Below, piece by piece: positions 11,265-34,733 of a stretch of 64,000 bases of DNA (its first letter is position 1; each line of letters starts with the position of its first letter). Both the position numbers and the translations under genes were made by a program. Source of the DNA: Candidatus Cloacimonadales bacterium (GTDB taxonomy: Bacteria > Cloacimonadota > Cloacimonadia > Cloacimonadales > JAIOQZ01); assembly GCA_963665815.1 (NCBI GenBank), contig OY762463.1, forward strand, positions 800,001-864,000, given 5' to 3'. Below the pieces are notes generated by a model. It did no database searches, was not told the DNA's origin, and saw nothing but the letters and a program-made list of their open reading frames with translations.

Positions 11265-13790
11265 TTATTTCAAAAGTAACATTTTTTTATTTTGAACACC
11301 ATCTGCTGTTTTCAGTCTGTAGAAATACACGCCACTGGATACATCTGCTCCATTCAGGTCTTTACCGTTCCAGATTATAGAATGCTCACCTGCATCTACA
11401 TGATCATTCACCAGATTCTTAACTTTCTGTCCCTTAATGTTGTATATTGTGAGTTCTGCATCTCCAGCCTTCGCCATAGAATAACTGATCTTTGTTTCAG
11501 GATTGAAAGGATTGGGGTAGTTGGAAAGGAGATGTGTTTTGTATTGCGGAATTTGCTCGTCTGTGTTTACGGGATTGCCAAAATTATATTTAACTTTGAA
11601 CTTTCCATCAAAGTAATCTATATAAGCAAGGTCTTCACAACCATCTCCATTAAAATCAACCATTGAATAAGAATAGAAACTGTTACCATCCATATTTATA
11701 TTATAAGTGTTCCAGTCGCTGTTTCTTCCATTATTTACTATTGCTTTCAAAGTTGATGCAAGCATTCCTTGCCTGAAAACGATATCCATATCATTATCAT
11801 TATCAATATCCGAAAGTAGTATTCTTTCAAATGGAAAAGTCAGAATAGGCCGAAACCATCCTGCGGAGATACTATCTAGGCTTTCCTCAAAGTAATCTTC
11901 ACTATTATCTCCCCAAAGAACAGAGAATTCACCAGAATCCTGATAGTCTATTGCAAAAACAATATCGAGATATCCATCATTGTCAAAATCGTTACACTCA
12001 TATGTCACATTGGGTGCAGGGAAATTATATAAAGTACTTTCATGATTGAACCCATTCCCGTTATTATTGATGAAACACCCAATTTCTGCAATTCCAAAGT
12101 AGATTCTGACAAATAGTATATCGGGATAGTTGTCTCCATTAATATCAGCAAAAATTAATGGCAAGTTATCAATATAATTCAGTTCAAAATAATCTTCAAG
12201 AGAGAACTGTCCGTTTCGATTTAGATAAATCTTTAATGGAGAAAAGATACCCTGAACAAGAATATCTTGATCTCCATCACAGTCAATATCAATAAAATCA
12301 CATCTAATCTTAAACATAACTTCATCATTTAACGACAAATCTGGAATTCCGGAAGAGTTCATGTACAGACATAATCTGCCTGGAGTTCTATAAGGAAGCG
12401 ATTGAACTTCTTCTATAGTAATGAAATCTGCAATCTCATTGCCATCAATATCACCGATATCATAATCAACTATTAGATTCGTTCTTACAATATTGCTTAA
12501 TGTATCACTTAATGAGCTATTTTGATTAAATAGTGACATGCAATTATTTGTTACTAAAAGGTTAATGTCTTCTTCCTGCAATTTCTCAATGCACTTAACA
12601 GATCTGTAATCCTGCAAACAGAATGCTTCATTAGAATAACTACCATTTACATTATAGTGGACCAGAGGTGCTCCCCCTGTAAATGATGTGTTATGTGTAC
12701 GTCTATAAAATGAGATAACATCTTCATATCCATTGCCATCGAAATCTACAATATCTACAATAGAATTGCATTTAGGGAATGACGGATCAGGTATATAACT
12801 ATCTCCACTTAATCGGTATAGCATTGAATTAAAATTGAAATCGACGAAAATTTCAAATATGTTGTCAATATTGATATCTCTTACTATAACATTTTTAACT
12901 CCTCTTTGAGTTTCAATAATGTTATAAGTATATGTAAATAACTGATTGCTATCATTCAATATAACAGTCAAATGACTATCATCTCTATCAGAATATATTA
13001 GATCTATTAATCAGTCTTCGTTAAAATCAAAGAAACCAATAAAGTCATTACTTTCTGCATCAGGTAGAACTGGATGATAGTTAGTAAAACTCATTAGCGC
13101 AGAATCAAACTCCAGCCACCCAAAAGAATTACGAGCTTCTGTCATAACAAAAAGATCTTTGTCTCCATCTAAATCTACATCATATGCCGATTTATTACTG
13201 TATGCGATGTAATTAACTGTATCCTGGATTTGAACAATGTTGAATGTATCATTTACAGTTGCTCGCCATAGAAAAAGCATATAATTACCACTACAACAAA
13301 GATCTGTTACTCCATCATTATTAAAATCATCACCTACAGTAATTGCTTGCCCCATCAGATCAGAAAAGGAAATTACAGAATCTGTAAAATTTCCAAATCC
13401 ATTATTTTTGTATAGTTTCACCCATATATTTGTTGTATGAACAATATCATTATCACCATCATCATCAATATCAAAAATCGAAATGTTTCTCATTGAAGTT
13501 AAATAGTCCCCAATAATGTTCTCTTCACCTAAAATACCATTATTATTTTTGAACCAGACAAGTTGATGGCTTTGAGTGGAATAAGTGACTAAATCCTTTA
13601 AACCATCCCCATCAATGTCTCCAAAAATAGATTCACTACCCATTATTTTGGGCACAACAGATGAATAATCAATCGAACTTTGAAAATAAGGATCCGAAAA
13701 GCACTCAGGGATTATAATTAGTAGAAATGCAATAGACAGAAATAGTTTTAACTTATTGTATCCACATGTATTTATGATACTAATTTCCAT
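11265..13790 (-). pseudogene. FG-GAP/VCBS repeat protein with CTD (array gene A), interrupted by one in-frame TGA at 13011-13013
   Basis: ORFs 13011-13790 and 11265-12971 share a frame; the junction reads FFDFNED*LIDLIYSDRDDSHLTVILN, with the stop at the Gly of a DxNxDG motif. Joined length ~841 aa matches the paralogues. Confidence 0.85.
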
Positions 13791-19134: not shown

Positions 19135-19240
19135 AATTCCTCCTCTTATACTACTATAGAATATTGATTCCCCAATCTGTTCCATCATAAATATCTTCCT
19201 GTTTTGCCATGAACTCAAAAAAATTACGATGCATATCAAG

Positions 19241-19290
19241 TTTGAGAGCTTTGCTGATTAATCATATATTGACAGAGCAAAGCTCTCAAA
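19241..19290 (-). repeat. Post-stop hairpin element, copy after gene D
   Basis: 15-bp perfect inverted repeat TTTGAGAGCTTTGCT...AGCAAAGCTCTCAAA, 4 nt after the stop. Confidence 0.85.
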
Positions 19291-19294
19291 GTCA

Positions 19295-21763
19295 TTATTT
19301 CAAAAGTAACATTTTTCTGTTTTGAACACCATCTGCTGTTTTCAGTCTGTAGAAATATACACCACTGGAAACATCAGAACCTTTTTCATCTTTACCATTC
19401 CAGATTATAGAATGCTCACCTGCATCTACATGATCGTTCACCAGATTCTTAACTTTCTGTCCCTTTATGTTGTAGATTGTGAGTTCTGCATCTCCAGCCT
19501 TCGCCATAGAATAACTGATCTTTGTTTCTGGATTGAATGGGTTAGGGTAGTTGGAAAGGAGTTGAGTAGAGTATTCAAACTTGTTATAATCCATATTGGC
19601 AATAGAATTATCACAGTTGTTTTCAAATAGATATATTTTCCCGTTTGAGAAATCATGGAAAAGAATATCCACATCATTATCATAATTAAGTGTGAAAGTA
19701 CTACAACTCGTCAAATCCATCAACCCCAGAACGTTGTTTAAGTTAATTGAATCTCTTCCGCAATTTTCAGCAATAACTAATTCGTAATGTTCAGGCTCAT
19801 TCTTAACATAGTAAATATCCAGATCATCATCGTTGTCAAAATCAGCAATACCACTAAAACTATATCTTGCTCCATGGGTATCAATTACTCTTACATCCTT
19901 GAGAAGAGAATCCTGAAAGCTATAGAATATTTTTGTTGTGTCACCGGAAGCGCAAAAATCCAAGCGTCCATCCATATCAAAATCAACAATTTTGACATTC
20001 TGAAAATGATTCAGTTCAGAATAAGAGCTAATCAATGTGAAACCAAAATTCTCGTTATTCTGAAACAAACTGTAACCGGCATTCATTTCACTTCCCGAAA
20101 AATCAACTAATCCATCATCATTAAGATCTATAAAATCAGTTTTCTTGCTAAAGGACACATCACAAAGCGTATTAACAAGAGAAAACTGATTATTGCAGTT
20201 CTCAAAAAAGAATAATTTATTCACTCTGTTCTGTAAGTTTAAAGTTGCATTGCAGACAATATCCAAATCAGAATCATTATCAAAATCAATAAATTTCAGG
20301 AACGAGCAACTACCATATTCCGATAAATCATTTAATGATAAAAGTACTTGAGTTTTAACTCCATTAATATATACACAGAGAAAATCTTCTAATTCGCCGG
20401 GGATTAAACAGTTATAGTAAGAAAAAATAATATAGTCTCTTACGCCGTTGTTATCCAGATCTGCATCATCGTGAAGATTAATCCATGACAAACCTGACAG
20501 TGGAGGATCAATATAAGCCAGAGTATCCTGAGTCTATACCAGTCCTCCTATGATGTGTCTGCCTCTATAGGAAATAATGTTATCATCACATTTGTAACAA
20601 TTTAGGAACACAGAACTGAGGCTTCTCAAATCTGCATTACAAGAGTAAAAACAACCGTTATCACTGTAGATTACGTTCCCGCTTGAACAGATTAAGTCTT
20701 TATAACCGTCATTGTTAACATCATAAGTATTTACAGGGAGAAAACCCTTCAAAGTGCTCTCATGAATAAAGCTCATGCTGCTTCCTGAAGTCACATTCTT
20801 GTAAACCCAAGCATCACCGATTTGTTTTTGCACAACGAAATCATCTCTTCCATCATTATTGAAGTCATCAAAATAGATATGCCAAAAGTCCCTGAGGCTA
20901 TCCTGCAGAATTACCTGATCTGAAAATCCGAAACCTGAGTTATTCAGCAAAAATCTTATTCCTTCATCAATCATACTTATTCCAATATCAGGAAAGCAAT
21001 CCCCATTCAATTCAATAACCTCAGGCACGCAATATTCATCTGTTTGAGGTGCTACATTATGTGTAATACTGAAGTTATTTATGTTCATGTCGAACTCAAG
21101 CCAGGCAAGAGAATCTCCAGCAGAATTACTTCCAAAAATATCTAAATCTCCATCATTGTCGAAGTCTGCAATAGATTGAATATTTTGTACGGATATTCTA
21201 TTACTCTTGAAAATAAAATCACATAAAGAAGTATTAACACTGAAGTCATCATCAGTAAAATTTCTGGTGCAGAAAGCAATAGTATTTGTAAAATTATCTG
21301 CTGCAAGTATATCTTCAAGATTGTCATTATTGATATCATCAATTATCAGATTTGTAATATTGCTCAGACCTGTTTCAAACTGTCTGTACAAATTGAAGTT
21401 TCCGGTTCCATCATTATAATAAATATAAATAGTTCCTGATGTTTCATTGCAGATAACAACATCTTCAAACCCATCATTAGTCACATTTGCCACACTGGCA
21501 TGAATATAATAATTATCAAATTCATGGATTACGTGGCAAATATCACCATTATTGTCACAATCTGTATCTTCATCCCAAACAACTTGGCAGCTAGTGATTC
21601 GAATCCTGTCCAGATCACCGTCCTGATCCACATCCAGAATAGATTCATGACTCCAGAATTTATGCCCACCGTTATTATATGCAAGAGATGCCTTGTTAAA
21701 CTCAATTTCACCAAAGAGAAAAACTGATGTAAAAAAAATGATAAGAACTAATATCTTTCCCAT
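19295..21763 (-). pseudogene. FG-GAP/VCBS repeat protein with CTD (array gene D), interrupted by one in-frame TAG at 20534-20536
   Basis: ORFs 20534-21790 and 19295-20491 share a frame; the junction reads [26 protein letters not shown]. Joined length ~822 aa; GAGG RBS before ATG 21763. Confidence 0.85.
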
Positions 21764-21814
21764 TATTTCCTCATTATTTATTTGTTCCAAGTGTTATTAC
21801 TATTCATTTTAGAG

Positions 21815-24265
21815 TTACTTCAAAAGTAACATTTTCCTGTTTTGAACACCATCTGCTGTTTTCAGTCTGTAGAAATACACACCACTTGAAACATCAGAGT
21901 CTTTTTCATCTTTACCATTCCAGATTATAGAATGCTCTCCGGATTCGACATGATCGTTTATCAGAGTTTTTACTTTCTGTCCCTTTATGTTATATATTGT
22001 CAGATTTGCACTGCCGGCTTTCGCCATTGAATATTTGATATTTGTTTCCGGATTGAACGGATTTGGGTAGTTAGCGTAGAGTTGTGTATTACAGAACGAC
22101 AAATCATGTTTTCTTATTCCCGTATGTATGTTGTTATATAATATGTACATTTCCCCTGTCACATTATCAAGGTAAACAATATCATCAGTTCCATTCTGAT
22201 CAACATCACCTGAAGACATTCTCACTATGTTATCAGGTATATGAGCAAGAGTCACTATTTCCCAGTTTGTGCTATCAACCGGATTTAGAGCAACATCAAT
22301 CAAACTTTCCCAAACGATTTCACCATAATGAAAATTGTTAACAGCAATATCTTTAACACCATCATTATTGAAATCTCCAAGTTCAATACTATATATATAT
22401 CCTGGGAAAAATAATGTATCAGGTACCTGACTGAAGCTGAAAGAAGAGTTACTACCCTCTCCATAACGAATGAGGAGATTATTTCTGGAAGAATCATCCT
22501 TGACAATCATATCAATGCGTCCATCCAGGTTAAGATCGTCAAAGGCAATGATATCAGAACTGATATCTGCTATCCATTCTGATAATCCAAAGCTGAATAA
22601 GCCATTATTCTTTATCCAGAAAAGTTGATCATTACTTCCAGTATATACAATATCCCTGATGCCGTCATTATCCATATCAACATATTTGCATGTATTTCTG
22701 TAAAATAGATTATCTGTATTCACAACCACAGAGTCTACTAAAGTTCCATTTTCATTGCTGAATAAATGGGTATTCTCATTGCGTATATCAATTAAGTCCA
22801 TATCTCCGTCAAAATCAAGATCAACAAACATTAATTCACGTCCACCACGATAATTACTATCATCAAGGATGATGTTCTGACCATTCAAAGACAAAATCAG
22901 TGCTTTGGTATCATCGTCGGTATAAGTTGCATAAGCGCAGTCAAGTTGTCCATCCCCATCTACATCTGCAAAAGCAGCGTCACTTACCGTAGCTATCCCT
23001 GGAGTAAGAAAATTTGAGTGAACAAACATACTGTCTTCTAACATGAGATAATTAAGATTGTAACGATGTCTGCACCCCAAAAAAAACCGATCATCATGAA
23101 TTATTAATGATATCTCATCCGTATTTCTAAATGAACTCACTCTTATGTTTTCATTATCGATATTTCCATTGTTGTTCTTATATACTCTGAAAATATACGT
23201 GTCAGGTTCGGTAACAATTTCTTTGTACTCATCTCCATCAAAATCTTTGAACCAGAGGTTACCCCCTGTACCATACAAATTGCAATCAAAAATAAAACCG
23301 GTTCCATTATTTACATATATGCCTGCCTTCTCTCCATAGTATAAGATAATTAAATCATCACGGGCATCCTGATTCAGGTCATATTTGTAGATATCATAGA
23401 CTGAATCCAGATTGTTAAACAGAATTGAAGAGTTTGAGAAGCTCTGATTTTCATCATTTTCGAACATCTGAATTGCATTCAAACTATCTGAATAAACCAG
23501 GAGGTCTGTTAAACCGTCTGAATTGACATCAATTGGAGTAATACCGGAATTTTCCCCCATGAATCTAATCGGAAGTTGATGATATATAAAACTATTTGTA
23601 TTGGGATCGAACTCACGCCAGTTATAAGGTTCGTTATATCCTGCAAAACCAACAACATCCATATAACTATCATTATTTAAATCAGCAAGAGAACAATATC
23701 TGTCATATTTATCCTGAATTGTTCCATATGGTAATGCAATTGAATTGAAAGGTGCCGTTGTCTGAGTTCTGGAAAAGTACTTAACTGAATCACCATCACA
23801 GGTATAAATATCCTGAATTCCGTCCTGATTAAAATCATGAATGAGAATCATTCCAAAATTTCCAATAGAAGTTTCCAGTGCATCCATATTATTCATGCTG
23901 AAGTCACCTGTTCCATTTCCGTAGAATATATACAAGTTATGATCCCCATCGAATTTAGCAATGATTTCTTCAGTTCCATCATTATTCATATCAACATAAT
24001 CCAACGAATAAAAATTGTTTGTAAAATGACCAACATAATGTTTGGTGTCCGGGATGGAATCTCCATCAGTGTCCTCAGCCCAGTATGGACCATCCTGATC
24101 ATAAAATATAACATCGAGATTGCCATCCGAGTTCACATCATCAACAAATCCGTCCTGATCAAGGAAGTTTTGATCACTATTGGCAATTTCAACCGGACCG
24201 GTAAAATCAACTGCCCAAATATTGCAAACCATTAACAAAACAATTGATACAAGATGATGTCTCAT
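21815..24265 (-). CDS. Secreted FG-GAP/VCBS repeat protein with CTD (array gene E)
   Basis: GGAGG RBS before ATG 24265, signal peptide, DxNxDG repeats, CTD; body closest to gene F. Confidence 0.9.
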
Positions 24266-24662
24266 TTTTCCTCCGTTCTGTATCAATATCCCAACATACT
24301 GATTTAATATTATATTTAAACTTTCATTCAAATGAAAGATTGCACTACATAGACGTATCAATTCGAGAGCTTCACCGGAACTCTCTGTCTGCTAATCAGG
24401 TAAAGCTCTCAATTATTATTTATTTCAAAAGTAACATTTTTTTATTTTGAACACCATCTGCTGTTTTCAGTCTGTAGAAATACACACCACTGGAAACATC
24501 AGAGTCTTTTTCATCTTTACCATTCCAGATTATAGAATGTTCTCCTGCTTCGACATGATCGTTAACCAGAGTTTTTACTCTCTGTCCTTTAATATTATAA
24601 ATTGTCAGCTCCGCATTACCTGAATTTGCCATTGAATAGCTGATTTTTGTTTCCGGGTTGAA
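24259..24662. repeat. ~404-bp direct repeat, copy 1 (CTD of F + spacer + start of E); copy 2 at 26888-27291
   Basis: By-eye alignment shows one mismatch (24278 vs 26907). Confidence 0.92.
24363..24412 (-). repeat. Post-stop hairpin element, copy after gene F
   Basis: Minus strand TTGAGAGCTTTACC...GGTGAAGCTCTCGA, pairing with two G-U wobbles. Confidence 0.8.
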
Positions 24663-26894
24663 CGGATTCGGGTAGTTGCCAAGGAGTTGTGTATTACAGA
24701 ACGATAAATCATTATTTTCTTTGATTCCGATAAGAGGATTGTTATAGAGTACTTTAATCTCGCCTGTGCTATTATCTACATAAGCAATATCATCAGTACC
24801 GTTTTCATCAAGATCTGCACCAGCCATTCTAATTTCGGTATCTGATATATTCAGCAAACTGACAACTTCCCAATTATTATCAATTACTGGATTTATCGCA
24901 ACACTGACACTGCTTGAATGTCCATGATTATCATGATAGAAGCAATTTACTGCAATATCATCAACACCGTCATTATTATAGTCTCCCAGCTCAAGTTCAG
25001 TTATATCTCCCGGTAGTAACAATGTGTCTGCAGATTGACTGAAACTGAAATTATAGTCATTACCTTCTCCGTAACGTACAAGCAAATGGTTTGGAGCAAA
25101 GTCATCTCTTACAAGCATATCAATGCGTCCATCCAGATTTAGATCAGTAAAAGCAATTATATCTGAACTAATTGTTGTTAGCAGCTCTGATTCTCCAAAG
25201 TTGAAAGAACCATTATTCTTGATCCAGAACAGTTGATTATTGCTTCCTGTATAAACAATATCCCTGATGCCATCATTATCCATATCAATATATTTACTTT
25301 TACTTCCCTCAAAAACAAATCCTAAATCATCTGTATCGATAACAACAGAATCAATTAATGTTCCATTTATATAATTGTAAAAATGAGTATATTCAATGCC
25401 GAAATCAACTAAATCACTATCTCCATCATCATCCAGATCCGCAAACATTAATCCACGTCCACCACGATAATTACTATTCTCGAGAATCATATTCTGACCA
25501 TTCAGAGATAGTATCAGGTTTTTAGTATAAGAATTATCATAGAAATTAATTGCGTAAACATAATCAAGCTGTCCATTGCCGTCTATGTCAGCACAATCTG
25601 ATTTATTTATTTCACCAACTGAAACTGATGGTGCTTGAATATTTGACAGATCTGCAATACCATCATCCAACATCAGATAGTTAAAATTATAAAAGTGGCT
25701 GCAAGATATAAAGGTGAGGTTATCCGATTCTCTTATTGATAACCTATCTGTGTTTCTGAATGAACTGATTCTTACATCATCATTACTGAAACTACCATTG
25801 CTATTATTGAAGACTTTGAAAACATCATTTTCAGATTCTGTAACAATCTCTTTATAACCATCTCCATCTAAATCTTTGAACCAGAGGTAATCTCCTGTTC
25901 CATAAATATCTGTGATATAATTGAATCCATTCCCATTGTTTAGATATATGTTTGCTATTTTCCAATCAGTTTGGATTACAAGATCTTCTAGTCCATCTGA
26001 ATTTAAATCACATTTATAGATATTTCTGACATTTCCAACATTATTTATCAAAATTGATGAATTTGAAAAACTTTGGGTTGCATCATTTTCATATAGTACA
26101 CAAGCGTTAAGACTATCTTCATAAACCAAAAGATCAATTAAACCGTCAGTATTTCCATCAATTGGAGTGATTCCGCTACTTACTCCCCTAAACCAGAGAG
26201 GAAGATAGTGATGTATGAAACTGTTTGTCGCAGGATCAAACTCTTGCCATGAATAAGGCTCGTCATAACTCCAAAAACCGACAATGTCCATGTAGCCATC
26301 GTTATTTATGTCTGCAAGGCAGCTTGATTTGACATACCTATGCTGACTCGTTCCATTCTGAAGATCAACTAAAATGAATTGAGACCAGGCTTGAGTTTTG
26401 TAAAAGTATTTGCATGATCCGCCTGAAGTATAAATATCCTGTATTCCATCATGATTAAAATCATGAATAAGAATAAGCCCATCTTTATAAACACCACTAT
26501 CCAGAATATCCATGTCATTTAGGCTGAAGTTCCCTGTACCGTGACCATAAAATATATAGAGATTAGTATCAGCTTCAAAATTAACAATAATATCTTTCTC
26601 CCCATCATTATTCATATCAATATAATCTAATGAAGACAACATTTGAGTAAAGTTACCTACATGATGTTTTGTATCAGGAAAACCATCCCCATTAGTATCT
26701 TCAGCCCAGTATGGGCCATTATAATCATCATAAAAAATCACATCAGGACTGCCATCTGAATTTACATCATCAATAAATCCGTTCTGATCAAAGTAGTTTT
26801 GACCACTGTTTGCTATCTCTACCGGAACATTAAAATCCACAGCTCCAATATTAGAAAGCACTACTAAAATAATTACTACAAAGTTAAGTCTCAT
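24420..26894 (-). CDS. Secreted FG-GAP/VCBS repeat protein with CTD (array gene F)
   Basis: GGAGG RBS before ATG 26894, signal peptide, DxNxDG repeats, CTD. Confidence 0.9.
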   Translation of the reverse strand: MRLNFVVIILVVLSNIGAVDFNVPVEIANSGQNYFDQNGFIDDVNSDGSPDVIFYDDYNGPYWAEDTNGDGFPDTKHHVGNFTQMLSSLDYIDMNNDGEKDIIVNFEADTNLYIFYGHGTGNFSLNDMDILDSGVYKDGLILIHDFNHDGIQDIYTSGGSCKYFYKTQAWSQFILVDLQNGTSQHRYVKSSCLADINNDGYMDIVGFWSYDEPYSWQEFDPATNSFIHHYLPLWFRGVSSGITPIDGNTDGLIDLLVYEDSLNACVLYENDATQSFSNSSILINNVGNVRNIYKCDLNSDGLEDLVIQTDWKIANIYLNNGNGFNYITDIYGTGDYLWFKDLDGDGYKEIVTESENDVFKVFNNSNGSFSNDDVRISSFRNTDRLSIRESDNLTFISCSHFYNFNYLMLDDGIADLSNIQAPSVSVGEINKSDCADIDGNGQLDYVYAINFYDNSYTKNLILSLNGQNMILENSNYRGGRGLMFADLDDDGDSDLVDFGIEYTHFYNYINGTLIDSVVIDTDDLGFVFEGSKSKYIDMDNDGIRDIVYTGSNNQLFWIKNNGSFNFGESELLTTISSDIIAFTDLNLDGRIDMLVRDDFAPNHLLVRYGEGNDYNFSFSQSADTLLLPGDITELELGDYNNDGVDDIAVNCFYHDNHGHSSSVSVAINPVIDNNWEVVSLLNISDTEIRMAGADLDENGTDDIAYVDNSTGEIKVLYNNPLIGIKENNDLSFCNTQLLGNYPNPFNPETKISYSMANSGNAELTIYNIKGQRVKTLVNDHVEAGEHSIIWNGKDEKDSDVSSGVYFYRLKTADGVQNKKMLLLK

Positions 26895-27291
26895 TTTTCC
26901 TCCGTTTTGTATCAATATCCCAACATACTGATTTAATATTATATTTAAACTTTCATTCAAATGAAAGATTGCACTACATAGACGTATCAATTCGAGAGCT
27001 TCACCGGAACTCTCTGTCTGCTAATCAGGTAAAGCTCTCAATTATTATTTATTTCAAAAGTAACATTTTTTTATTTTGAACACCATCTGCTGTTTTCAGT
27101 CTGTAGAAATACACACCACTGGAAACATCAGAGTCTTTTTCATCTTTACCATTCCAGATTATAGAATGTTCTCCTGCTTCGACATGATCGTTAACCAGAG
27201 TTTTTACTCTCTGTCCTTTAATATTATAAATTGTCAGCTCCGCATTACCTGAATTTGCCATTGAATAGCTGATTTTTGTTTCCGGGTTGAA
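26888..27291. repeat. ~404-bp direct repeat, copy 2 (CTD of G + spacer + start of F); includes the hairpin at 26992-27041
   Basis: Near-identical to 24259-24662. Confidence 0.92.
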
Positions 27292-29532
27292 TGGGTTAGG
27301 GTAGTTGCAGAGAAGTTGTGTTCTATATTCAGGAAAATCAGTGTCTTCATTAGGAGTGATTTCGGTAGTATTGATATGAGCTTTTATCTTCTTTGAGCTA
27401 TAATCAATAAACATAATATCCTGTAATCCATCCTCATTCACATCAGCTGCACAATGTAATATTTGATTATTGAAAATGTAGGAAGAACTGTCTAAAAGCA
27501 TAGTATTTATTAGATTCACGCTTCCATCGTTCTCTGCAACTTCCATTTTAACAGTCTGAAAATCATAATAATGAAGCTGAGTATATAAAAAATCATTATC
27601 ATTATCATTATCTAAATCAACGAAATCAAAACTTCTATAATAGCCACTTGGACCAACAATAATGGGAACTGTTGCGAAACCATTTGATAATCCAAGATAA
27701 GCCTTAGGAGCTGAACCAGTATTGAAATCCCAGGTTACAATATCTTTTACACCATCACCATTTGCGTCCCTATATTCAAAATCACTGAAAACCGTACTCA
27801 ATATTGAGACCGGATCATCAAAGCTAAATCCACCCAGATTATATGCTAAATTCAGTGAACCAGTTACATTAGTATAGAGTAAATCGCAAAAACCATCTTC
27901 ATTAATATCAGAAAAATCAAATCTTCTGACATAAGATGGTCCGTCAACATGGTATAGATTTGAGAATGTACAATTGTTGTTTTCATATACTTTAATTCTG
28001 AAGACATCATCATCAACAGAATAGCATGTAATATCAAAATCCCCATCGTTATCTACATCGTTGAACTCAGCACATGCAATTAGGTTTTCAGATGCGAACG
28101 AAACAATATCCTGCATTCTGGTTCCATTAAGATAAAAAATTATTTTGTCCTTTAAAAAGCCTTGCTCAACATATTCCTCAACAAAAATATAATCTAATAC
28201 TCCATTGTTATCAATATCTTCACAATCAAAATCATTGAAGAATCTGATATCTCTTACTGGTCGATCTTGAATTATGATCTCACCATCAACCAGCTCTGCT
28301 TCAGCAACATAATAATATCCTGCAATTACATATCTGTCCGTACCGGAAACATTCTTTTTAAAGAAGGATTGAACGTATTTCAAAGGAAGTATTTTTGAAT
28401 TATCAAAACTGAATGATCCGTTGCTATTCAGATAAATCATATAGTCCCCACCAAGATCACACGTCATATCAAGTTCACCGTCATCATTCATGTCTTCAAT
28501 CCAGAAATTAGTTACATCAGAAGTTATTTCTGATGATATTTGAAGTCCGGATGTGCTGTTTAGATAAACTTGCATTTTGGCATTCCCTGATTCCTTACAA
28601 CTTAGTTCAAAATCAGGCAGACCATCATTATTAACATCATAGGACTCCATTTGATATATTCTATCAATATTATCAGCAAAAGGTGTCAAATTTGTGAAGC
28701 CATTTGTCTGATTATTCTGAACAATCCTGATAGTTTGAGCATTTCTGTCATAGACAATAACATCTGCATACCCGTCATTATTCATGTCGCTTACTATAAA
28801 TGAGCTGTAATCATTACAGTTGCATATAAAATGAGAAGTGTTAAAAGAGTTAGTACCTGGATCAAACTCATACCAGACAATTTGCCCCGTATCTGTCTTA
28901 AGTCCAATATAATCCATATAACCATCATTATTAACATCTGCAATGTTTGAATTATCATTATATACACCATTTCTTAAACATAACATATTATCGTTTAGCT
29001 GATTAACTCTGAATGTATCATTCACAGATGGTCGAGTGAGATACACAGATTTACTGTTATCAGAGATTATTATATCCTGAATTCCATCAAGATTGAAATC
29101 ATATATGGTCATAGCAAAGCCAAAGTAATGCGATGTATGATAATCTTCTCTGGAAAAAATTCCAGTACCGTCGTTTGTGTAAATATAAAGTAGATCTCTC
29201 GCATCATCTGCTGTAACTAAATCTTTGAAACCATCATTATTCATATCTACATAGTATAATGTCCCAGAAACAGTTTGGTCTATTAGATGCGTCATGTCAA
29301 TACAATCGTCAAAGACACCATTATTGTTTGAGTCCTCATGCCAGAGAACACCATTACTATGCTTTGGAATGAAATCATCATCACCATCATTATCAATGTC
29401 ATCAACAATAAATTGATTCTTGTCAACACAACCATATTCCTGATTGGATATTGTAACCGGAGCAGCAAACTCTATAGCTGTAATACTACTAATCAACAAT
29501 ACAAGAATTCCTATACAAAAAATCTTTTTCAT
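27049..29532 (-). CDS. Secreted FG-GAP/VCBS repeat protein with CTD (array gene G)
   Basis: GGAGG RBS before ATG 29532 (MKKIFCIG), DxNxDG repeats; body closest to H, CTD identical to F. Confidence 0.9.
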   Translation of the reverse strand: MKKIFCIGILVLLISSITAIEFAAPVTISNQEYGCVDKNQFIVDDIDNDGDDDFIPKHSNGVLWHEDSNNNGVFDDCIDMTHLIDQTVSGTLYYVDMNNDGFKDLVTADDARDLLYIYTNDGTGIFSREDYHTSHYFGFAMTIYDFNLDGIQDIIISDNSKSVYLTRPSVNDTFRVNQLNDNMLCLRNGVYNDNSNIADVNNDGYMDYIGLKTDTGQIVWYEFDPGTNSFNTSHFICNCNDYSSFIVSDMNNDGYADVIVYDRNAQTIRIVQNNQTNGFTNLTPFADNIDRIYQMESYDVNNDGLPDFELSCKESGNAKMQVYLNSTSGLQISSEITSDVTNFWIEDMNDDGELDMTCDLGGDYMIYLNSNGSFSFDNSKILPLKYVQSFFKKNVSGTDRYVIAGYYYVAEAELVDGEIIIQDRPVRDIRFFNDFDCEDIDNNGVLDYIFVEEYVEQGFLKDKIIFYLNGTRMQDIVSFASENLIACAEFNDVDNDGDFDITCYSVDDDVFRIKVYENNNCTFSNLYHVDGPSYVRRFDFSDINEDGFCDLLYTNVTGSLNLAYNLGGFSFDDPVSILSTVFSDFEYRDANGDGVKDIVTWDFNTGSAPKAYLGLSNGFATVPIIVGPSGYYRSFDFVDLDNDNDNDFLYTQLHYYDFQTVKMEVAENDGSVNLINTMLLDSSSYIFNNQILHCAADVNEDGLQDIMFIDYSSKKIKAHINTTEITPNEDTDFPEYRTQLLCNYPNPFNPETKISYSMANSGNAELTIYNIKGQRVKTLVNDHVEAGEHSIIWNGKDEKDSDVSSGVYFYRLKTADGVQNKKMLLLK

Positions 29533-29833
29533 CTTTTCCTCCAACAAAAAGATCGTGGCACCCCAACGTGCCTAATTGAGAGCTTTGCAACAATTCACAC
29601 CTTATGAATTATGCAAAGCCCCCAAATATTTATTATTTCAAAAGCAACATTTTTCTATTTTGAACACCTTCTGCTGTTTTCAGTCTGTAGAAATATACAC
29701 CACTGGAAACATCAGAATCTTTGTCATCCTTACCATTCCAGATTATAGAATGCTCTCCGGATTCGACATGATCATTCACCAGAGTTTTTACTCTCTGTCC
29801 TTTAATATTATAAATTGTTAGCTCCGCATTACC
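29528..29833. repeat. ~306-bp direct repeat, copy 1 (3' CTD of H + spacer + start of G); copy 2 at 32115-32420; includes the hairpin at 29576-29625
   Basis: Three mismatches by eye, none in the spacer. Confidence 0.92.
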
Positions 29834-32119
29834 CGTTTCTGCAAGTGAATAGTTGATCTTAGTTTCCGGATTGAACGGATTGGGATAGTTGCCATAAAGC
29901 TTTGTTGAATACTCTGGTATATCGGTATCTGAATTGGAAGTTACTATTGTGTTATTGATATATGTTTTTATTTTTTTTGTACTGTAATCAATGTACATAA
30001 TATCCTGCAAACCATCTTCGTTTACATCAGCAGTGCAATGCAGTATTTGGCTATTTATCATATAAAAACAGCTATCCAGGAGTACAGAATTAGTAAGGTT
30101 CATTGTTCCATCATTCTCTAAAATCTCCATTTCCAGATATTCATAACTATTATTATGCAAGTGTGTTAATAGAACATCGTTATCATTGTCGTTATCAAAA
30201 TCTACAAAATCAAGACTTCTATACCGACATTCAGAACCAATTGTTACAGGTGTTGATGAAAAATTACTACTTGATGTACCTAAGTATACTTCCGGAGCTA
30301 CATAATTCTCAAAATTCCAGGTTACAATGTCTTTCACTCCATCTCCGTTGGCATCTTTATGTTCAAAATCACTGAAAACCGTACTCAATAGTGAGATCGG
30401 AGCATCAAAGCTCATTCCTCCCAGATTATATGCCACGTTTAATGAGCTATTTACATCTGTATAAAGTAAATCACAGAAACCATCACCATTAACATCAGCA
30501 AAATCATGCCTTCTAATTGAAGACTGAGCTACTTCATCATACTGATTAAAGAAAACACAATTACAGTTTTCATATACTTTTACACTGCTTACACCATCAT
30601 CAACTCCATAAAATGTAATATCATAGTTTCCGTCATTATCTACATCATTGAATTCAGCATCTTTAATAGAATTCCAGGAAGCAGATGATACTAAATCCTG
30701 CATTCTGGTTCCATTAATATAGAGTACTATTTTTTGTTTAGTCAATCCCTGCACAGAATAACTCTCAACAAAGATGTAATCCAAAACACCATTGTTGTCA
30801 ATATCTTCACAATCAAAATCATTGAAGAATCTGATATCCCTTACAGGTTTATCTTCAATAATCATCTCACCATTAATCAATTCAGCTTCTACAATATAAT
30901 AATATCCTGCAATGATATATCTGTCTGAGCCCAAAACATTTTTTTTAGTAATAGATTGAACTTGCTCTAATGGAATTATTTTTGAATTATCGAAACTAAA
31001 TATACCGTTGTCATTCAGATAAATCATAAAATCATTTCCAATATCACATAACATATCAAGTTCACCATCTTCATTAATGTCTTCAATCCAGAAGTAACGA
31101 AAGTCAGATTGAATTTCTGAGGATAATTGAAGCCCGGAAGTACTGTTCAGGTATATACTCTTCTTTGTGTTCGAGGATTCACCATAACTTACTGCAATAT
31201 CGAGCAGACCATCGTTGTTAAAATCATAAGATTCAATCTGTGAAAGATAATCAATACTATAAACAAAAGGAGTCTGGCTTGAAAAACCATTAGCCTGATT
31301 ATTCAAAACCACTCTAAGAGAGTAAGCATTATTGTCATAAATGATAATATCGGAATTCCCATCATTATTAATATCACTAAAAATGAATGTACCATAATCA
31401 GGATTATTACAGATAGAGTGAGAATTTGTAAAAGTATTAACATTCGGATCAAATTCATACCAGACAACTTGATTTGTATATATGTCATAACCGATATAAT
31501 CCATATATCCATCATTGTTAACATCAATAATGTTTGAGTTGTCGTTATATAAACCATTTTTGAGATACAACACATGGTCGTTTAAATGATTAACTTGAAA
31601 TGTATCATTAACAGATGATCTTGTAAGATAGACAGATTTACTGTCACTGGAAATAAATAAATCCTGAACTCCATCAATATTAAAATCATAAATGTTTATT
31701 GCAAAAGCCATATACATAGATGTACAATATGCTTCTTTCGAAAAAAATCCTGTTCCGTTATTAGTAAATATATACAATGAGTCATGGCTTTGACCAGTAG
31801 TGACAATATCTTTAACACCATCATTATTCATGTCCACATAGTATAATCCCGAATGACAAATTCTATCTATAGAATGAGGCATATCTATACAACCATCATA
31901 AACACTATTACCATTAATGTCTTCATACCAGTAAACATTATTACCAAACTTTGGAATAAAGTCATCATCACCATCATTATCAACGTCATCAACGATAAAA
32001 CGATTCTTGTTCACACACCCATAATCCTGATTGGATATTGTAATAGGAGCAGCAAACTCTATGGCTGCAATACTGCCAATTAACAATACAATAATACCAA
32101 TGCAAAAAATCTTCTTCAT
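29633..32119 (-). CDS. Secreted FG-GAP/VCBS repeat protein with CTD (array gene H)
   Basis: GGAGG RBS before ATG 32119, signal peptide, DxNxDG repeats, CTD. Confidence 0.9.
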   Translation of the reverse strand: MKKIFCIGIIVLLIGSIAAIEFAAPITISNQDYGCVNKNRFIVDDVDNDGDDDFIPKFGNNVYWYEDINGNSVYDGCIDMPHSIDRICHSGLYYVDMNNDGVKDIVTTGQSHDSLYIFTNNGTGFFSKEAYCTSMYMAFAINIYDFNIDGVQDLFISSDSKSVYLTRSSVNDTFQVNHLNDHVLYLKNGLYNDNSNIIDVNNDGYMDYIGYDIYTNQVVWYEFDPNVNTFTNSHSICNNPDYGTFIFSDINNDGNSDIIIYDNNAYSLRVVLNNQANGFSSQTPFVYSIDYLSQIESYDFNNDGLLDIAVSYGESSNTKKSIYLNSTSGLQLSSEIQSDFRYFWIEDINEDGELDMLCDIGNDFMIYLNDNGIFSFDNSKIIPLEQVQSITKKNVLGSDRYIIAGYYYIVEAELINGEMIIEDKPVRDIRFFNDFDCEDIDNNGVLDYIFVESYSVQGLTKQKIVLYINGTRMQDLVSSASWNSIKDAEFNDVDNDGNYDITFYGVDDGVSSVKVYENCNCVFFNQYDEVAQSSIRRHDFADVNGDGFCDLLYTDVNSSLNVAYNLGGMSFDAPISLLSTVFSDFEHKDANGDGVKDIVTWNFENYVAPEVYLGTSSSNFSSTPVTIGSECRYRSLDFVDFDNDNDNDVLLTHLHNNSYEYLEMEILENDGTMNLTNSVLLDSCFYMINSQILHCTADVNEDGLQDIMYIDYSTKKIKTYINNTIVTSNSDTDIPEYSTKLYGNYPNPFNPETKINYSLAETGNAELTIYNIKGQRVKTLVNDHVESGEHSIIWNGKDDKDSDVSSGVYFYRLKTAEGVQNRKMLLLK

Positions 32120-32420
32120 CTTTTCCTCCAACAAAAAGATCGTGGCACCCCAACGTGCCTAATTGAGAGCTTTGCAACAATTCACACCTTATGAATTATG
32201 CAAAGCCCCCAAATATTTATTATTTCAAAAGCAACATTTTTCTATTTTGAACACCTTCTGCTGTTTTCAGTCTGTAGAAATATACACCACTGGAAACATC
32301 AGAATCTTTGTCATCCTTACCATTCCAGATTGTGGAATGCTCTCCGGATTCGACATGATCATTCACCAGAGTTTTTACTCTCTGTCCTTTAATATTATAA
32401 ATTGTCAGCTCCGCATTACC
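32115..32420. repeat. ~306-bp direct repeat, copy 2 (3' CTD of I + spacer + start of H); includes the hairpin at 32163-32212
   Basis: Near-identical to 29528-29833. Confidence 0.92.
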
Positions 32421-34685
32421 TGAATTTGCCATTGAATAGCTGATCTTAGTTTCCGGATTGAATGGGTTAGGGTAGTTGCCAAGGAGTTGTGTTTTATATT
32501 CAGGTATATCAGTGTCTGAATTCGGGAATACAACACTATTATTAATCATTACATTTATCTTCTTACCCTTGATTCCATAATAGACAATATCCTGCAATCC
32601 ATCATCATTTATATCTATGAGTTTGAAATCAAAGCAATAATCAGAATCTTCTTCTGTTGCAGGCACATCGTTCCAATTTGACATAACTCCCTCGTTTTCA
32701 AGAGAATGTATTGCCATGCACTCATATCCGGTTTCAATGCTGTAAACTAAATCCTTATCTCCATCCAAATCAAGATCACTAATACGCATTGTTTGCGTGC
32801 TTCCTGCATATCCAAAAACCATTGGAACTGTGGAAAAACCATTAGATGTGTTTCCTGCATAAACAGCAATAATCGAATCCTGATAAGTACTATATTTTAT
32901 GATATCTTTAATTCCATCATCAGTAATATCCTCATAGATGAACCTGCTGAAATACCCATTCATAATCAAAGTCGGATCTGAAAAATTGAAATTCCCGTTA
33001 TTATATGAAATATAGAGATCCTGATTCCCATCTGAGAAAATCAGATCTTTATCCAGATCCCCGTCAACATCATCAAACACATGCCAGGATGTAATAGAGT
33101 TCAGAACAACATGCGCATTATCTGTAAACCCATTGTTGTTTTCGTATATTTTGATTGATCTCTGGAAATCCTCGTTTACATGGCATTTCAGATCAAAATC
33201 TCCATCGTTATCAATGTCTATGAAATCTAATCTATTTATTGTGCTGTACCTGCTATACGGAAGATTCAATACAGTATCAAGTTGGTTATTCATATAAATT
33301 AACAGTCTGCAATGTTCCGGATTAACTTCATTATCTTCGGCATAATCTTCCGAGATAACAAAGTCAAGAATTCCATTGTTATCAATATCTTCTACATCAT
33401 ATGAGAAAATATATCCTTTGCATACTAAAGGAACATCGTCAACAACCCATTCACCGGAAATCAACTCAGCTTTTACCAGGTAGTTCGCTCCTTTAATTAT
33501 CAATTCAGGATTAATACCGTCATCAAGGTACCTGACATCATATACTAAGCTTAATCCATCAAGTTTGCAGTTATCAAACCCAAAAGATCCATTATTATTG
33601 TAAAAATAAAGAAAATCATCTCTGTTTATTTCAGCTACTATATCCGATGCTCCATCGTCATTTACGTCTTCAATAAATACTCCTGTAACAGGAATTTCAA
33701 TTTCTTCACTGAATGCAAAGCCATTTCCTGTGTTGAGAAATATTTTCAGATGATTAAACCCATGATGAAGAACAATATCAACCATGCCATCACCATTCAT
33801 ATCCCCTACAAGCAGATGCTTAAGGTTAACTAAACTGTCTGCAATAACTGTTCTCTGGGTAAAATCGTGATTCTGATCATTTTCGAGAAGTGATAAGGTC
33901 TGTAATCCGCTCTCATACAGAAAAACATCCTGATCGTTATCATTATCTGCATCAGCCACAACAAATTGATTGTAAGGATCGTAATTGGAAATCACATTGC
34001 AGTTTACAAATGTGTCAGCTGTCGGATCGAACTCATACCATAACAAATTGCTGAACGAATCATTTACACCCACAACATCCATATAACCATCATTATTGAA
34101 ATCAACGAGATACGAATAATCATTGAATGCCCCTCTTCTATGCCCATGGACAATGCCGGATAAAACATCAACCCGAAAAGTGTCATTCACTGATGAACGT
34201 GTCAAAAATATAGTTCTTCCCCATCCGGAAAAATAAGCGTCTTTAATTCCATCATTGTTAAAATCGTAGTATAATGCATTATCAGACTTATAATCTGTTG
34301 CATAATATGTTTCAAGAGTGAAGTTGCCTGATCCGTCATTCACAAATATATAGAAGTTTTCATCAACATATACAGTAACTGCAATATCCTTAAATCCATC
34401 GTTATTCATGTCTACAAATTCAATAGATTCAAGCCAGTAACTGAAATTTCCAATATCATGATTTGTATCCGGAACACCATCCCCATCAGTATCTTCTACC
34501 CATACAGGACCGTTTGCATCACGAATAATATAGTCGAGGTCTCCATCATAATCAATATCATCAATAATCCTGTTACGGTTTTCATAAGTACAATTGGACT
34601 GAATAATTGTCTCCGGATCAAGAAAATTGATTGCCCCAATAGAGCATACAATAAGCAAAGTAAATATAAACATTATTTGCTTCAT
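32220..34685 (-). CDS. Secreted FG-GAP/VCBS repeat protein with CTD (array gene I)
   Basis: GGAGG RBS, signal peptide, about 14 regularly spaced Dx[DN]xDG-type blades, CTD. Confidence 0.92.
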   Translation of the reverse strand: MKQIMFIFTLLIVCSIGAINFLDPETIIQSNCTYENRNRIIDDIDYDGDLDYIIRDANGPVWVEDTDGDGVPDTNHDIGNFSYWLESIEFVDMNNDGFKDIAVTVYVDENFYIFVNDGSGNFTLETYYATDYKSDNALYYDFNNDGIKDAYFSGWGRTIFLTRSSVNDTFRVDVLSGIVHGHRRGAFNDYSYLVDFNNDGYMDVVGVNDSFSNLLWYEFDPTADTFVNCNVISNYDPYNQFVVADADNDNDQDVFLYESGLQTLSLLENDQNHDFTQRTVIADSLVNLKHLLVGDMNGDGMVDIVLHHGFNHLKIFLNTGNGFAFSEEIEIPVTGVFIEDVNDDGASDIVAEINRDDFLYFYNNNGSFGFDNCKLDGLSLVYDVRYLDDGINPELIIKGANYLVKAELISGEWVVDDVPLVCKGYIFSYDVEDIDNNGILDFVISEDYAEDNEVNPEHCRLLIYMNNQLDTVLNLPYSRYSTINRLDFIDIDNDGDFDLKCHVNEDFQRSIKIYENNNGFTDNAHVVLNSITSWHVFDDVDGDLDKDLIFSDGNQDLYISYNNGNFNFSDPTLIMNGYFSRFIYEDITDDGIKDIIKYSTYQDSIIAVYAGNTSNGFSTVPMVFGYAGSTQTMRISDLDLDGDKDLVYSIETGYECMAIHSLENEGVMSNWNDVPATEEDSDYCFDFKLIDINDDGLQDIVYYGIKGKKINVMINNSVVFPNSDTDIPEYKTQLLGNYPNPFNPETKISYSMANSGNAELTIYNIKGQRVKTLVNDHVESGEHSTIWNGKDDKDSDVSSGVYFYRLKTAEGVQNRKMLLLK

Positions 34686-34733
34686 TTTTCCTCCAATGCC
34701 AGCAAATACCCAACATATCTACTGGTAAACAAG

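Follow-up and report, generated by a model that had tools for sequence, protein, structure and literature searches.

A run of paralogous genes on the minus strand of this genome raises the question of what keeps a hairpin loop constant when its stem changes from one gene to the next. In the window, by which we mean the whole 64,000-nt stretch of DNA analysed, five genes of the array are each preceded by a small hairpin with a GUUGGG loop. The genes, these hairpins and their neighbours are as follows.

32220..34685, minus strand: gene I, FG-GAP repeat protein with a T9SS C-terminal sorting domain (CTD) (Pfam FG-GAP_3, 4.6e-33; Por_Secre_tail, 3.8e-07)
29633..32119, minus strand: gene H, paralogue of I with 42% identity to it (Pfam)
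27049..29532, minus strand: gene G, paralogue (Pfam and identity comparison)
24420..26894, minus strand: gene F, paralogue (Pfam and identity comparison)
21815..24265, minus strand: gene E, paralogue (Pfam and identity comparison)
34699..34725, minus strand: hairpin before gene I, CCAGUAGAUA-U-GUUGGG-UAUUUGCUGG, 10-pair stem with two G.U pairs
32144..32159, minus strand: hairpin before gene H, GGCAC-GUUGGG-GUGCC
29557..29572, minus strand: hairpin before gene G, GGCAC-GUUGGG-GUGCC, duplicate of the H hairpin (covariance model R1, 30.4 bits)
26911..26932, minus strand: hairpin before gene F, AUCAGUAU-GUUGGG-AUAUUGAU
24282..24303, minus strand: hairpin before gene E, AUCAGUAU-GUUGGG-AUAUUGAU, duplicate of the F hairpin (R1, 34.6 bits)
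19166..19177, minus strand: weak hairpin 32 nt before the ATG of gene C, GAUU-GGGG-AAUC
32165..32210, minus strand: large 12-pair hairpin, GGGGGCUUUGCA...UGCAAAGCUCUC, just past the gene I stop and directly upstream of a GUUGGG hairpin
29578-29623, 26994-27039, 24365-24410 and 19244-19287: further copies of the large hairpin

Re-reading the sequence bore out the preliminary description in the coordinates of all five GUUGGG hairpins on the minus (coding) strand, in the distance to the ATG (23-29 nt beyond the loop end) and in the GGAGG that lies 3' of every hairpin. Its count of three independent examples is correct for the window, since the E/F and G/H hairpins are recent duplicates. The I hairpin lies within the 48-nt spacer separating genes J and I. 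The weaker hairpin before gene C is located as described; the fold puts it in a small stem (z -0.35), and it is closer to a second, GGGG-loop family discussed below than to the GUUGGG family. GTTGGG is not over-represented in the window (12 copies, 14.3 expected); the departure from randomness is in where it sits and in the stems that flank it.

A search of the whole window against Rfam release 15 gave 0 matches at the gathering threshold. The neighbouring large hairpin is a dispersed palindrome of the REP type, in which one stem sequence recurs at many loci, and GCAAAGCTCTC occurs 29 times in the genome; the stems of the GUUGGG hairpins are unrelated to one another. The small hairpins also do not have the G+C-rich stem directly before a U-tract of an intrinsic terminator or attenuator. 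Only the G/H copies score as terminator-like (5 pairs, with a T-run from 6 nt past the stem), and no T-run follows the E/F and I hairpins.

The marked genes extend beyond the array. Enrichment before CTD genes, on which the preliminary description had made its proposal depend, was found in the genome containing the window (G000): using our own crude gene calls and home-made start codons (3019 genes, 179 with a CTD by our own HMM), GTTGGG at -60..-10 precedes 9 of 179 CTD genes and 2 of 2840 others. At -70..-12 it is the most CTD-enriched hexamer (9 vs 5; Fisher 1.2e-8, uncorrected for the roughly 4096 hexamers and with duplicates counted). Within 0-100 nt upstream of called starts, same-strand GTTGGG occurs 13 times, 10 of them before CTD genes, and one more site overlaps a called start; the stems at the 10 CTD-gene sites have 5-11 pairs, those at the three others 1, 5 and 1. 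When a strict GTTGGG hexaloop with a stem of at least 5 pairs was required, 5 CTD genes and 0 others remained, placing this loop at the top of the 1474 loop sequences seen. At random upstream positions, strict hexaloop stems reach at least 5 pairs in 1.1-1.4% and at least 8 pairs in 0.1-0.16% of cases.

The GTTGGG-marked genes comprise the FG-GAP array, a beta-helix protein, a beta-propeller (SBBP) protein, a peptidase of the C25 family and two proteins of unknown type; eight independent sites in G000 stand before non-homologous genes. Since the CTD is the sole feature common to them, the motif was not inherited by duplication of whole genes. This confirmed that the observation is real and wider than the paralogue array. 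The earlier proposal that the hairpin coordinates translation of the paralogues was thus too narrow: as it also stands before unrelated T9SS cargo genes, it marks a small cargo regulon rather than one gene family.

Individual sites differ in how they are predicted to fold. The minimum-free-energy fold shows a clean GUUGGG hexaloop only for E/F, G/H and the gene g856. The I leader folds into an 11-pair stem with a GUUGG loop (-14.9 kcal/mol, z -3.1) and the F leader reaches -6.6 kcal/mol (z -2.4), while at g585, g855, g2926 and g1203, that is, at four of the eight independent sites, other pairings are favoured and GUUGGG does not appear as the loop. G.U pairs occur in the stems and would become A-C mismatches if the opposite strand were read, indicating that the structure is specific to the mRNA strand.

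Comparison with G001, the sole same-genus genome compared, showed hairpins before its array orthologues (4 copies) and also before orthologues of g2926 and a g856-like gene. The I hairpin is identical there (L123 16803). The orthologue of the H hairpin reads GGUAC-GUUGGG-GUGCC, a C to U change that retains a G.U pair, and that of the F hairpin CUGAUAC-GUUGGG-GUAUUGG, in which the closing pair has changed from U-A to C-G. The loop is therefore invariant between the two genomes and these compensatory stem changes preserve pairing, as had been noticed within the window. Across 7 sequences, 89.6% of 48 cells were paired, compared to 23-52% with the partner slid; both sides were altered in 8 of 8 pairs, and the covariation score was reached by 0 of 500 shuffles.

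Among 151 genomes of the order, the hairpins (by covariance model) were found only in G000 and G001. Covariance-model matches outside the genus were at chance level, none with the hairpin-SD-ATG layout, and a related-locus search there gave distant FG-GAP and CTD matches only. Homologues of g856 in five genomes of the family have different leaders, and the output of an SD-anchored pattern scan of 40 relatives was dominated by noise.

The search for a partner of the loop led to one locus.

G000:C1, about 2361549-2361669, plus strand: predicted sRNA gene of about 120 nt with three CCCAAC motifs, a promoter and a terminator, 1.5 Mb from the window

CCCAAC is the exact complement of the GUUGGG loop, and the three copies at 2361594-2361647 are the sole same-strand triple of the hexamer within 60 nt in the genome. 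By prediction the locus is an independent transcription unit, with a promoter (TTGACA-16-TATATT) matching 11 of 12 consensus positions and a Rho-independent terminator of 11 pairs with the T-rich tail CTATTTTATA. The predicted RNA (fold z -5.2) would expose its C-rich motifs redundantly: motif 1 is half in the loop and half in the stem of a 5' hairpin, motif 2 lies in an unpaired linker and motif 3 in the terminator loop. It is identical over 105 consecutive positions in G001, where one flank is unrelated and the other diverged. By blastn it was found, like the hairpins, only in G000 and G001 among the 151 genomes; with two genomes representing the genus, the co-occurrence of hairpin and sRNA is weak evidence.

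The 6-nt complement is exact in the leaders of 10 CTD genes, upstream of the SD and not on it. Complementarity is longer in three leaders (I, 8 nt; g856, 9 nt; g855, 10 nt), of which g855 and g856 are paralogues; because the three seeds have three different flanking bases, chance alone would lengthen the match to 7 nt in 3 of 4 cases. In a genome-wide duplex prediction (duplexfold) for the sRNA and all leaders, long and unrealistic duplexes prevailed. Rfam (release 15) gave no more than sub-threshold scores at this locus, and a metagenome scan by the three motifs returned at least 117 loci, with none sRNA-like by blastn among the matches listed. The preliminary description had left three options, an RNA-binding protein, an sRNA or a cleavage signal; the second has now gained a conserved predicted gene with 3x CCCAAC.

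We hold, with about even confidence, that the hairpin is the docking site of a C-rich, multi-seed sRNA, comparable to LhrC or RNAIII-rot. In a subset of T9SS cargo mRNAs, the leader or intercistronic spacer would hold the hairpin as a functional RNA element whose role is to display a constant GUUGGG hexaloop shortly upstream of the ribosome-binding site. The trans-encoded sRNA of about 120 nt would dock on this loop through its CCCAAC seeds, and pairing at -23 to about -50 would alter ribosome access or mRNA decay and affect all marked cargo genes together. A seed of C and A only tolerates no wobble, which could explain why the loop is invariant though the stems vary. Transcription of the sRNA, pairing of the two RNAs and the direction of the effect are what we infer; by analogy, repression appears somewhat likelier than activation. 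Several points count against docking of an sRNA. First, the guaranteed complementarity is only 6 nt. Second, a 6-nt hairpin loop is sterically strained when fully paired. Third, loop and seed are both invariant in G000 and G001 and show no loop-seed covariation. Lastly, a lone triple cluster is about 4% likely by chance, since a triple of this kind occurs for only 17 of the 442 similarly abundant hexamers.

Two known systems resemble the proposed sRNA docking. In Listeria monocytogenes, the LhrC1-5 sRNAs act on lapB through three redundant C-rich sites (a 5' hairpin, a single-stranded segment and the loop of the terminator), which base-pair with a G-rich stretch that lies upstream of this surface-protein mRNA's start codon in a low G+C host (PMC4132741). 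The candidate sRNA has the same three-site layout. Compared with LhrC, its motif is CCCAAC rather than UCCC, it is predicted to act on a dedicated hairpin loop that lies upstream of the SD and not on the SD itself, and its predicted gene is single-copy. The two are not homologous: the locus has no Rfam match, and an LhrC score of 17 bits, at chance level, falls elsewhere in the genome. RNAIII of Staphylococcus aureus is a 514-nt multifunctional RNA. The C-rich loops of three of its hairpins bind three UUGGGA motifs of rot, and one of these contacts covers the rot SD, according to a review (PMC4691137). The word here, (G)UUGGG(A), is nearly the same and is also presented in hairpin loops; unlike in the rot contacts described there, each target carries one loop, outside the SD. 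Since the phylum is unrelated to S. aureus, this likeness is convergent.

Other RNAs were also compared. Pairing of the loop with rRNA was rejected, as 16S lacks CCCAAC, CCAAC and CCCAA and the 3.8 kb after it, where 23S lies, lack CCCAAC. One tRNA D-loop reads AGUUGGGA, and we mention this possible D-arm mimicry as a curiosity only. Chlorobi-1 RNA (RF01696; consensus GaGCAGguGu-AAUGGGGGa-CacCUGCuC) likewise presents a G-rich loop on a GAGCAGG/CCUGCUC stem, and this stem recurs in the candidate sRNA terminator and in one hairpin of the 450-nt region described next. Membership in the Chlorobi-1 family was rejected, with a best score of 17.1 bits against a gathering threshold of 50, a level reached by 9 of 14 control genomes.

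A parallel system was observed in the same genome, consisting of AUAGGGGUAU leader hairpins and a 450-nt region rich in CCCCU. This region, at 797880-798350, contains about 12 CCCCU motifs (12x AGGGG on the minus strand), trails a cargo gene and adjoins a histidine kinase and a sigma-54 response regulator; Rfam scores within it were sub-threshold only. Its repeated helix has G.U pairs on the plus strand and A-C mismatches on the minus strand, and its terminator is on the plus strand. The AUAGGGGUAU family therefore has its own multi-copy complementary locus, so that the same logic is seen twice.

The foremost alternative to a docking sRNA is an operator role for the loop, comparable to Csr/Rsm sites or the thrS operator: a sequence-specific RNA-binding protein would bind the G-rich loop and perhaps also the nearby SD, and the three GUUGGG (minus strand) and the 12 AGGGG would serve as decoy RNAs that titrate the protein. 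We consider this unlikely. Constancy of the loop across variable stems is classically a mark of protein recognition, the SD lies 6-40 nt from the hairpin and could be reached by a dimer bridging two sites, and the genome has a CsrA homologue and one RRM protein and no Hfq. CsrA/RsmE sites and CsrB/RsmZ sponges likewise combine a G-rich loop hairpin near the SD with a separate multi-copy locus, and the 12x AGGGG region would be sponge-like, of CsrB type, if read on the minus strand. AUAUAGGGGUAU resembles the CsrA SELEX consensus, but with GGG for GGA. The GGA core of CsrA/RsmE sites is, however, absent from the G/H (GGGG) and I (GGGU) hairpins and from all four array hairpins of G001, so the earlier statement that the loop differs from the ANGGA loop of CsrA holds; of the eight independent sites in G000, six owe their GGGA solely to the closing base A. 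Furthermore, csrA is located within a flagellar cluster, where flgK-like and flgL-like genes flank it in the manner of flagellin-dedicated CsrA systems, and the RRM protein was rejected as the binder because the leader of its own gene has no such loop. Unlike for CsrB/RsmZ, strand evidence at both multi-motif loci favours the complementary strand: read on the minus strand, the triple has its first GUUGGG in a terminator loop and its other two beyond the U-tract of that terminator, no minus-strand promoter for the triple was found, the minus-strand upstream context is unrelated in G001, and the helix and terminator of the 450-nt region favour plus.

It is improbable, in our judgement, that the hairpin works alone in the processing or stability of a polycistronic array mRNA, marking a cut site together with the large hairpin and then shielding the downstream cistron's 5' end, no dedicated trans factor being involved. 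The array spacers are short (48-100 nt in G000, for I-H and H-G; 47-103 nt in G001) and contain no convincing promoter, the promoter scan of the window being at chance (114 found vs 103 expected), and the order of stop, large hairpin, small hairpin and SD is common to both species. In the cip-cel operon, moreover, the stoichiometry of secreted proteins is reported to be set by intercistronic stem-loops (PMC10311766). A purely structural role, however, needs no invariant loop on wholly changed stems, the motif also stands before monocistronic-looking genes with promoter-like sequence of their own (e.g., g2926), and the locus with the complementary 3x CCCAAC is left unexplained.

Finally, a DNA-level element (promoter, operator or recombination site) or an artefact of chance or descent is hardly credible: the sites are intergenic and lie ahead of genes, the T-run-bearing G/H copy scored as terminator-like and E/F and G/H are duplicates, but an operator would conserve the arms and not the spacer, the palindromes are imperfect as double-stranded DNA owing to their G.U pairs, the sites share no second promoter element at a fixed spacing, and eight independent sites stand before non-homologous genes with stems whose chance level is 0.1-1.4% per site. 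Among specific promoter types, we rejected a Bacteroidota-type -7 element (TAnnTTTG) since this genome uses TTGACA-type promoters, TTGACA being the upstream word that dominates, and sigma-54 (GG-N10-GC) and ECF-type promoters were rejected on inspection of the eight sites, where the spacing is wrong for sigma-54.

T9SS cargo proteins are very numerous in genomes of this group (179 in our count here), and to our knowledge almost nothing is known about how the expression of subsets of them is coordinated; a narrow full-text literature search found no paper tying T9SS cargo genes to leader hairpins or sRNAs. What is newly seen is a conserved predicted sRNA locus with 3x CCCAAC complementing the leader loop. 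If the pairing of this sRNA with the GUUGGG loops holds, it would amount to a T9SS cargo regulon controlled post-transcriptionally, in a lineage that has been little studied, and to a clean natural case of a hairpin label gained independently by unrelated genes and read by an sRNA, with two concrete candidate RNA partners in which defined mutations are possible. More tentatively, and with somewhat more doubt than belief, the sequences of both families suggest a two-channel RNA addressing of the very large T9SS secretome in one genus, in which GUUGGG and AUAGGGGUAU labels were acquired independently by unrelated cargo genes and each is read by its own conserved C-rich multi-seed RNA (120 nt with 3x CCCAAC; 450 nt with ~12 CCCCU). 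If true, subsets of secreted proteins would be switched together post-transcriptionally.

The GUUGGG-loop hairpins of the preliminary description were all found at their given coordinates on the coding strand upstream of FG-GAP repeat genes E to I, with 23-29 nt from loop end to ATG and a GGAGG between; as it had noted, E/F and G/H are duplicates, leaving only three independent stems in the window. The genes lie in a paralogue array whose features are as follows (window coordinates).

13832-37136, minus strand: about ten paralogous FG-GAP repeat genes with a type IX secretion C-terminal domain (CTD)
19166-19177, minus strand: weaker hairpin of the preliminary description, gene C, also present
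24282-24303, minus strand: GUUGGG hairpin, gene E
26911-26932, minus strand: GUUGGG hairpin, gene F
29557-29572, minus strand: GUUGGG hairpin, gene G
32144-32159, minus strand: GUUGGG hairpin, gene H
34699-34725, minus strand: GUUGGG hairpin, gene I
32165-32210, 29578-29623, 26994-27039, 24365-24410 and 19244-19287, minus strand: large hairpin directly 3' of array stop codons
19295-20491 with 20534-21790, and 11265-12824 with 13011-13790, minus strand: two paralogues, each apparently broken into two ORFs, an N-terminal one with FG-GAP but no CTD and a C-terminal one that carries the CTD

The two split paralogues may be disrupted copies. The large hairpin is REP-like or terminator-like, without a U-tract, and the palindrome forming its stem (GAGAGCUUUGC/GCAAAGCUCUC) is dispersed: its 11-mer occurs 29 times in the genome. 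G and H also have a second small hairpin (AUCUUUUU / AAAAGAUG) around the Shine-Dalgarno (SD) site (32117-32141 and 29530-29554, minus strand), whose loop, GUUGGAG, almost repeats the GUUGGG of the hairpin upstream.

The source genome (G000) is a single contig of 3.96 Mb with 36% G+C, in which TTGACA-type promoters and GGAGG SD sites are the usage; among 3019 genes from our own crude calls, 179 carry a CTD according to our own HMM. The window shows no excess of GTTGGG (12 copies observed, 14.3 expected), and what is non-random is its position and flanking sequence, not its frequency there. Genome-wide, the anticipated enrichment was present: GTTGGG lies at -60 to -10 in 9 of 179 CTD genes and 2 of 2840 others. 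It is also the top CTD-enriched upstream hexamer (9 vs 5 at -70 to -12; Fisher 1.2e-8, uncorrected for multiple tests and with duplicate genes counted). Sixty sites are not wholly within called genes, and 13 of these lie on the same strand 0-100 nt 5' of a gene; CTD genes follow ten of the 13, with stems of 5-11 pairs, and the other three have stems of 1, 5 and 1 pairs. One additional site overlaps a called start. At random upstream positions, a strict hexaloop has a stem of at least 5 pairs in 1.1-1.4% of cases and of at least 8 pairs in 0.1-0.16%. When all strict hexaloops with stems of at least 5 pairs up to 100 nt upstream of genes were ranked, GTTGGG came first (5 CTD genes, 0 others). 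Other words enriched before CTD genes were CACACCT (5 CTD genes vs 2 others), TGGAACA (7 vs 11) and, within 20 nt of the start, AAACCT (7 vs 4).

The GTTGGG-marked CTD genes outside the array are of several types.

g585: beta-helix
g855 and g856: unknown type
g2926: SBBP propeller
g1203: C25 peptidase

The CTD is the only feature they have in common with the array, and the hairpin was therefore acquired independently about eight times. Minimum-free-energy folds gave a clean GUUGGG loop for E/F, G/H and g856 only; the loop of I folded as GUUGG, and for g585, g855, g2926 and g1203 other pairings were favoured.

A related-locus search found no close homologue of the array outside the genus. In the sister species (G001), the single genome of the genus that was compared, where the highest protein identity is 59%, the orthologous array keeps the hairpins, as the preliminary description would predict, in spacers of 47-103 nt with the same order of stop, large hairpin, small hairpin, SD and ATG. 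The I-type hairpin is identical, the H-type differs by a single C-to-U substitution, which leaves a G.U pair in place, and the E/F-type reads CUGAUAC-GUUGGG-GUAUUGG in G001 and AUCAGUAU-GUUGGG-AUAUUGAU in G000, with C-G replacing U-A as the closing pair in G001 and several further changes that preserve pairing. Likewise in G001, the GUUGGG hairpin is retained, with altered stems, before the g2926 orthologue and before a gene resembling g856. In an alignment of seven sequences (six distinct), selected as hairpins and including one non-homologous to the others, 89.6% of 48 cells were paired, compared with 23-52% for slid partners, a figure that describes the set and is not proof of structure; 8 of 8 pairs had changed on both sides, and the covariation score was reached by 0 of 500 shuffles. 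Since the stems contain G.U pairs, the structure is specific to the mRNA strand. Searching with a covariance model of the hairpin recovered the G000 training copies and three G001 copies only; its seven weak matches in the 149 other genomes of the order equal chance expectation, and all seven lack the hairpin-SD-ATG layout. The hairpins are thus real, non-random and conserved, and these computations make it very probable that they are a functional RNA element.

We consider it unlikely that the hairpin is a protein operator. The genome encodes csrA (G000:C1 3352065-3352328, minus strand, 87 aa, between flgK-like and flgL-like genes) and one RRM protein (1628188-1628397); a canonical CsrA site is excluded because GGA is absent from G/H, I and all four G001 array copies, in keeping with the earlier remark that the loop is unlike the CsrA motif. 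That the hairpin is a stand-alone stability element seems quite unlikely. A dispersed repeat is excluded because the stems are unrelated, a promoter because there is no common second element (the window promoter scan was at chance level), and a terminator save for a weak terminator-like score of G/H; Rfam gave no match for the hairpins.

No complement of the loop was found in 16S rRNA or in the following 3.8 kb, the location of the 23S gene, and no Hfq gene was found in G000. A hexamer cluster scan of the genome gave one same-strand triple (2361594-2361647), and such a triple exists for just 17 of the 442 hexamers that are about as abundant. On the plus strand the triple consists of three copies of CCCAAC, the exact complement of the GUUGGG loop.

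G000:C1 2361549-2361669, plus strand: predicted sRNA gene of 120 nt with three CCCAAC, from promoter and terminator prediction

The predicted promoter (TTGACA-16-TATATT) matches 11 of 12 consensus positions, the 3' end is an intrinsic terminator of 11 pairs with a T-rich tail, and the fold of the ~120-nt RNA has a z of -5.2. Half of motif 1 is in the loop of the 5' hairpin; the linker that holds motif 2 (ACACCCAACAAAAAA) is unpaired, and the terminator loop contains motif 3. No Rfam family matched. G001 is identical over 105 consecutive positions covering both hairpins and all three motifs, with flanks that are unrelated past the terminator and divergent on the promoter side. By blastn against 151 genomes of the order, the full locus occurs in G000 and G001 only; the one partial match examined proved to be a look-alike terminator whose loop differs. 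A minus-strand reading would put the first GUUGGG in a terminator loop and the other two beyond its U-tract, which argues against a minus-strand decoy RNA. The C/A-only seed permits no wobble, in line with a loop that never varies. Complementarity extends past the 6-nt core to 8 nt for I, 9 nt for g856 and 10 nt for g855; a 7-nt match equals chance expectation. A short element adjacent to the sRNA (G000:C1 ~2361760-2361900, minus strand) contains a hydrophobic ORF of 23 codons; the element matches ~45 places in G001 and is thus multi-copy.

The candidate has the layout of the LhrC sRNAs of Listeria monocytogenes (PMC4132741). According to a review (PMC4691137), rot mRNA of Staphylococcus aureus has three UUGGGA motifs bound by RNAIII hairpins 7, 13 and 14, nearly the GUUGGG target word. 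The present case differs from both systems in that the site is the loop of a dedicated hairpin 5' of the SD, and the genes bearing it are unrelated members of a single secretion class.

Another family of leader hairpins, sharing the core AUAGGGGUAU and a GGGG tetraloop, lies 24-35 nt before the ATG of six other CTD (T9SS cargo) genes, and its complement is concentrated in one region.

G000:C1 2886518, 2980002, 3391849, 3787023, 3789880 and 3793055, outside the window: AUAGGGGUAU hairpins
G000:C1 797880-798350, lying 1.65-2.1 kb to the left of the window: 450-nt, highly structured non-coding region

Six of the eight genome copies of the family's 10-mer precede those genes, whose SD is GGGGGA or GGGGA, and G001 has at least five sites. 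The 450-nt region is flanked by a CTD gene before it and, after it, by a histidine kinase and a sigma-54 response regulator (window 13-1242). It contains 12 AGGGG on the minus strand, hence 12 CCCCU on the plus strand (next-best genome window, 6), several in hairpin loops; its fold has a z of -12.65 on the plus strand and -6.24 on the minus, and it is 94% identical in G001. Plus-strand transcription is favoured by the presence of a terminator and by G.U pairing within a repeated helix.

The same logic in two systems raises our confidence in loop-sRNA pairing. As the partner of the hairpin loop, the candidate sRNA is the best single explanation, with about an even chance of being correct on computational grounds. 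In the array, processing of a polycistronic transcript may act beside the hairpin, because the hairpin there follows a copy of the 29-copy palindrome. Pairing of the sRNA with the loop may repress the marked CTD genes, by blocking 30S docking or recruiting a nuclease, or may activate them; by analogy, repression is favoured.
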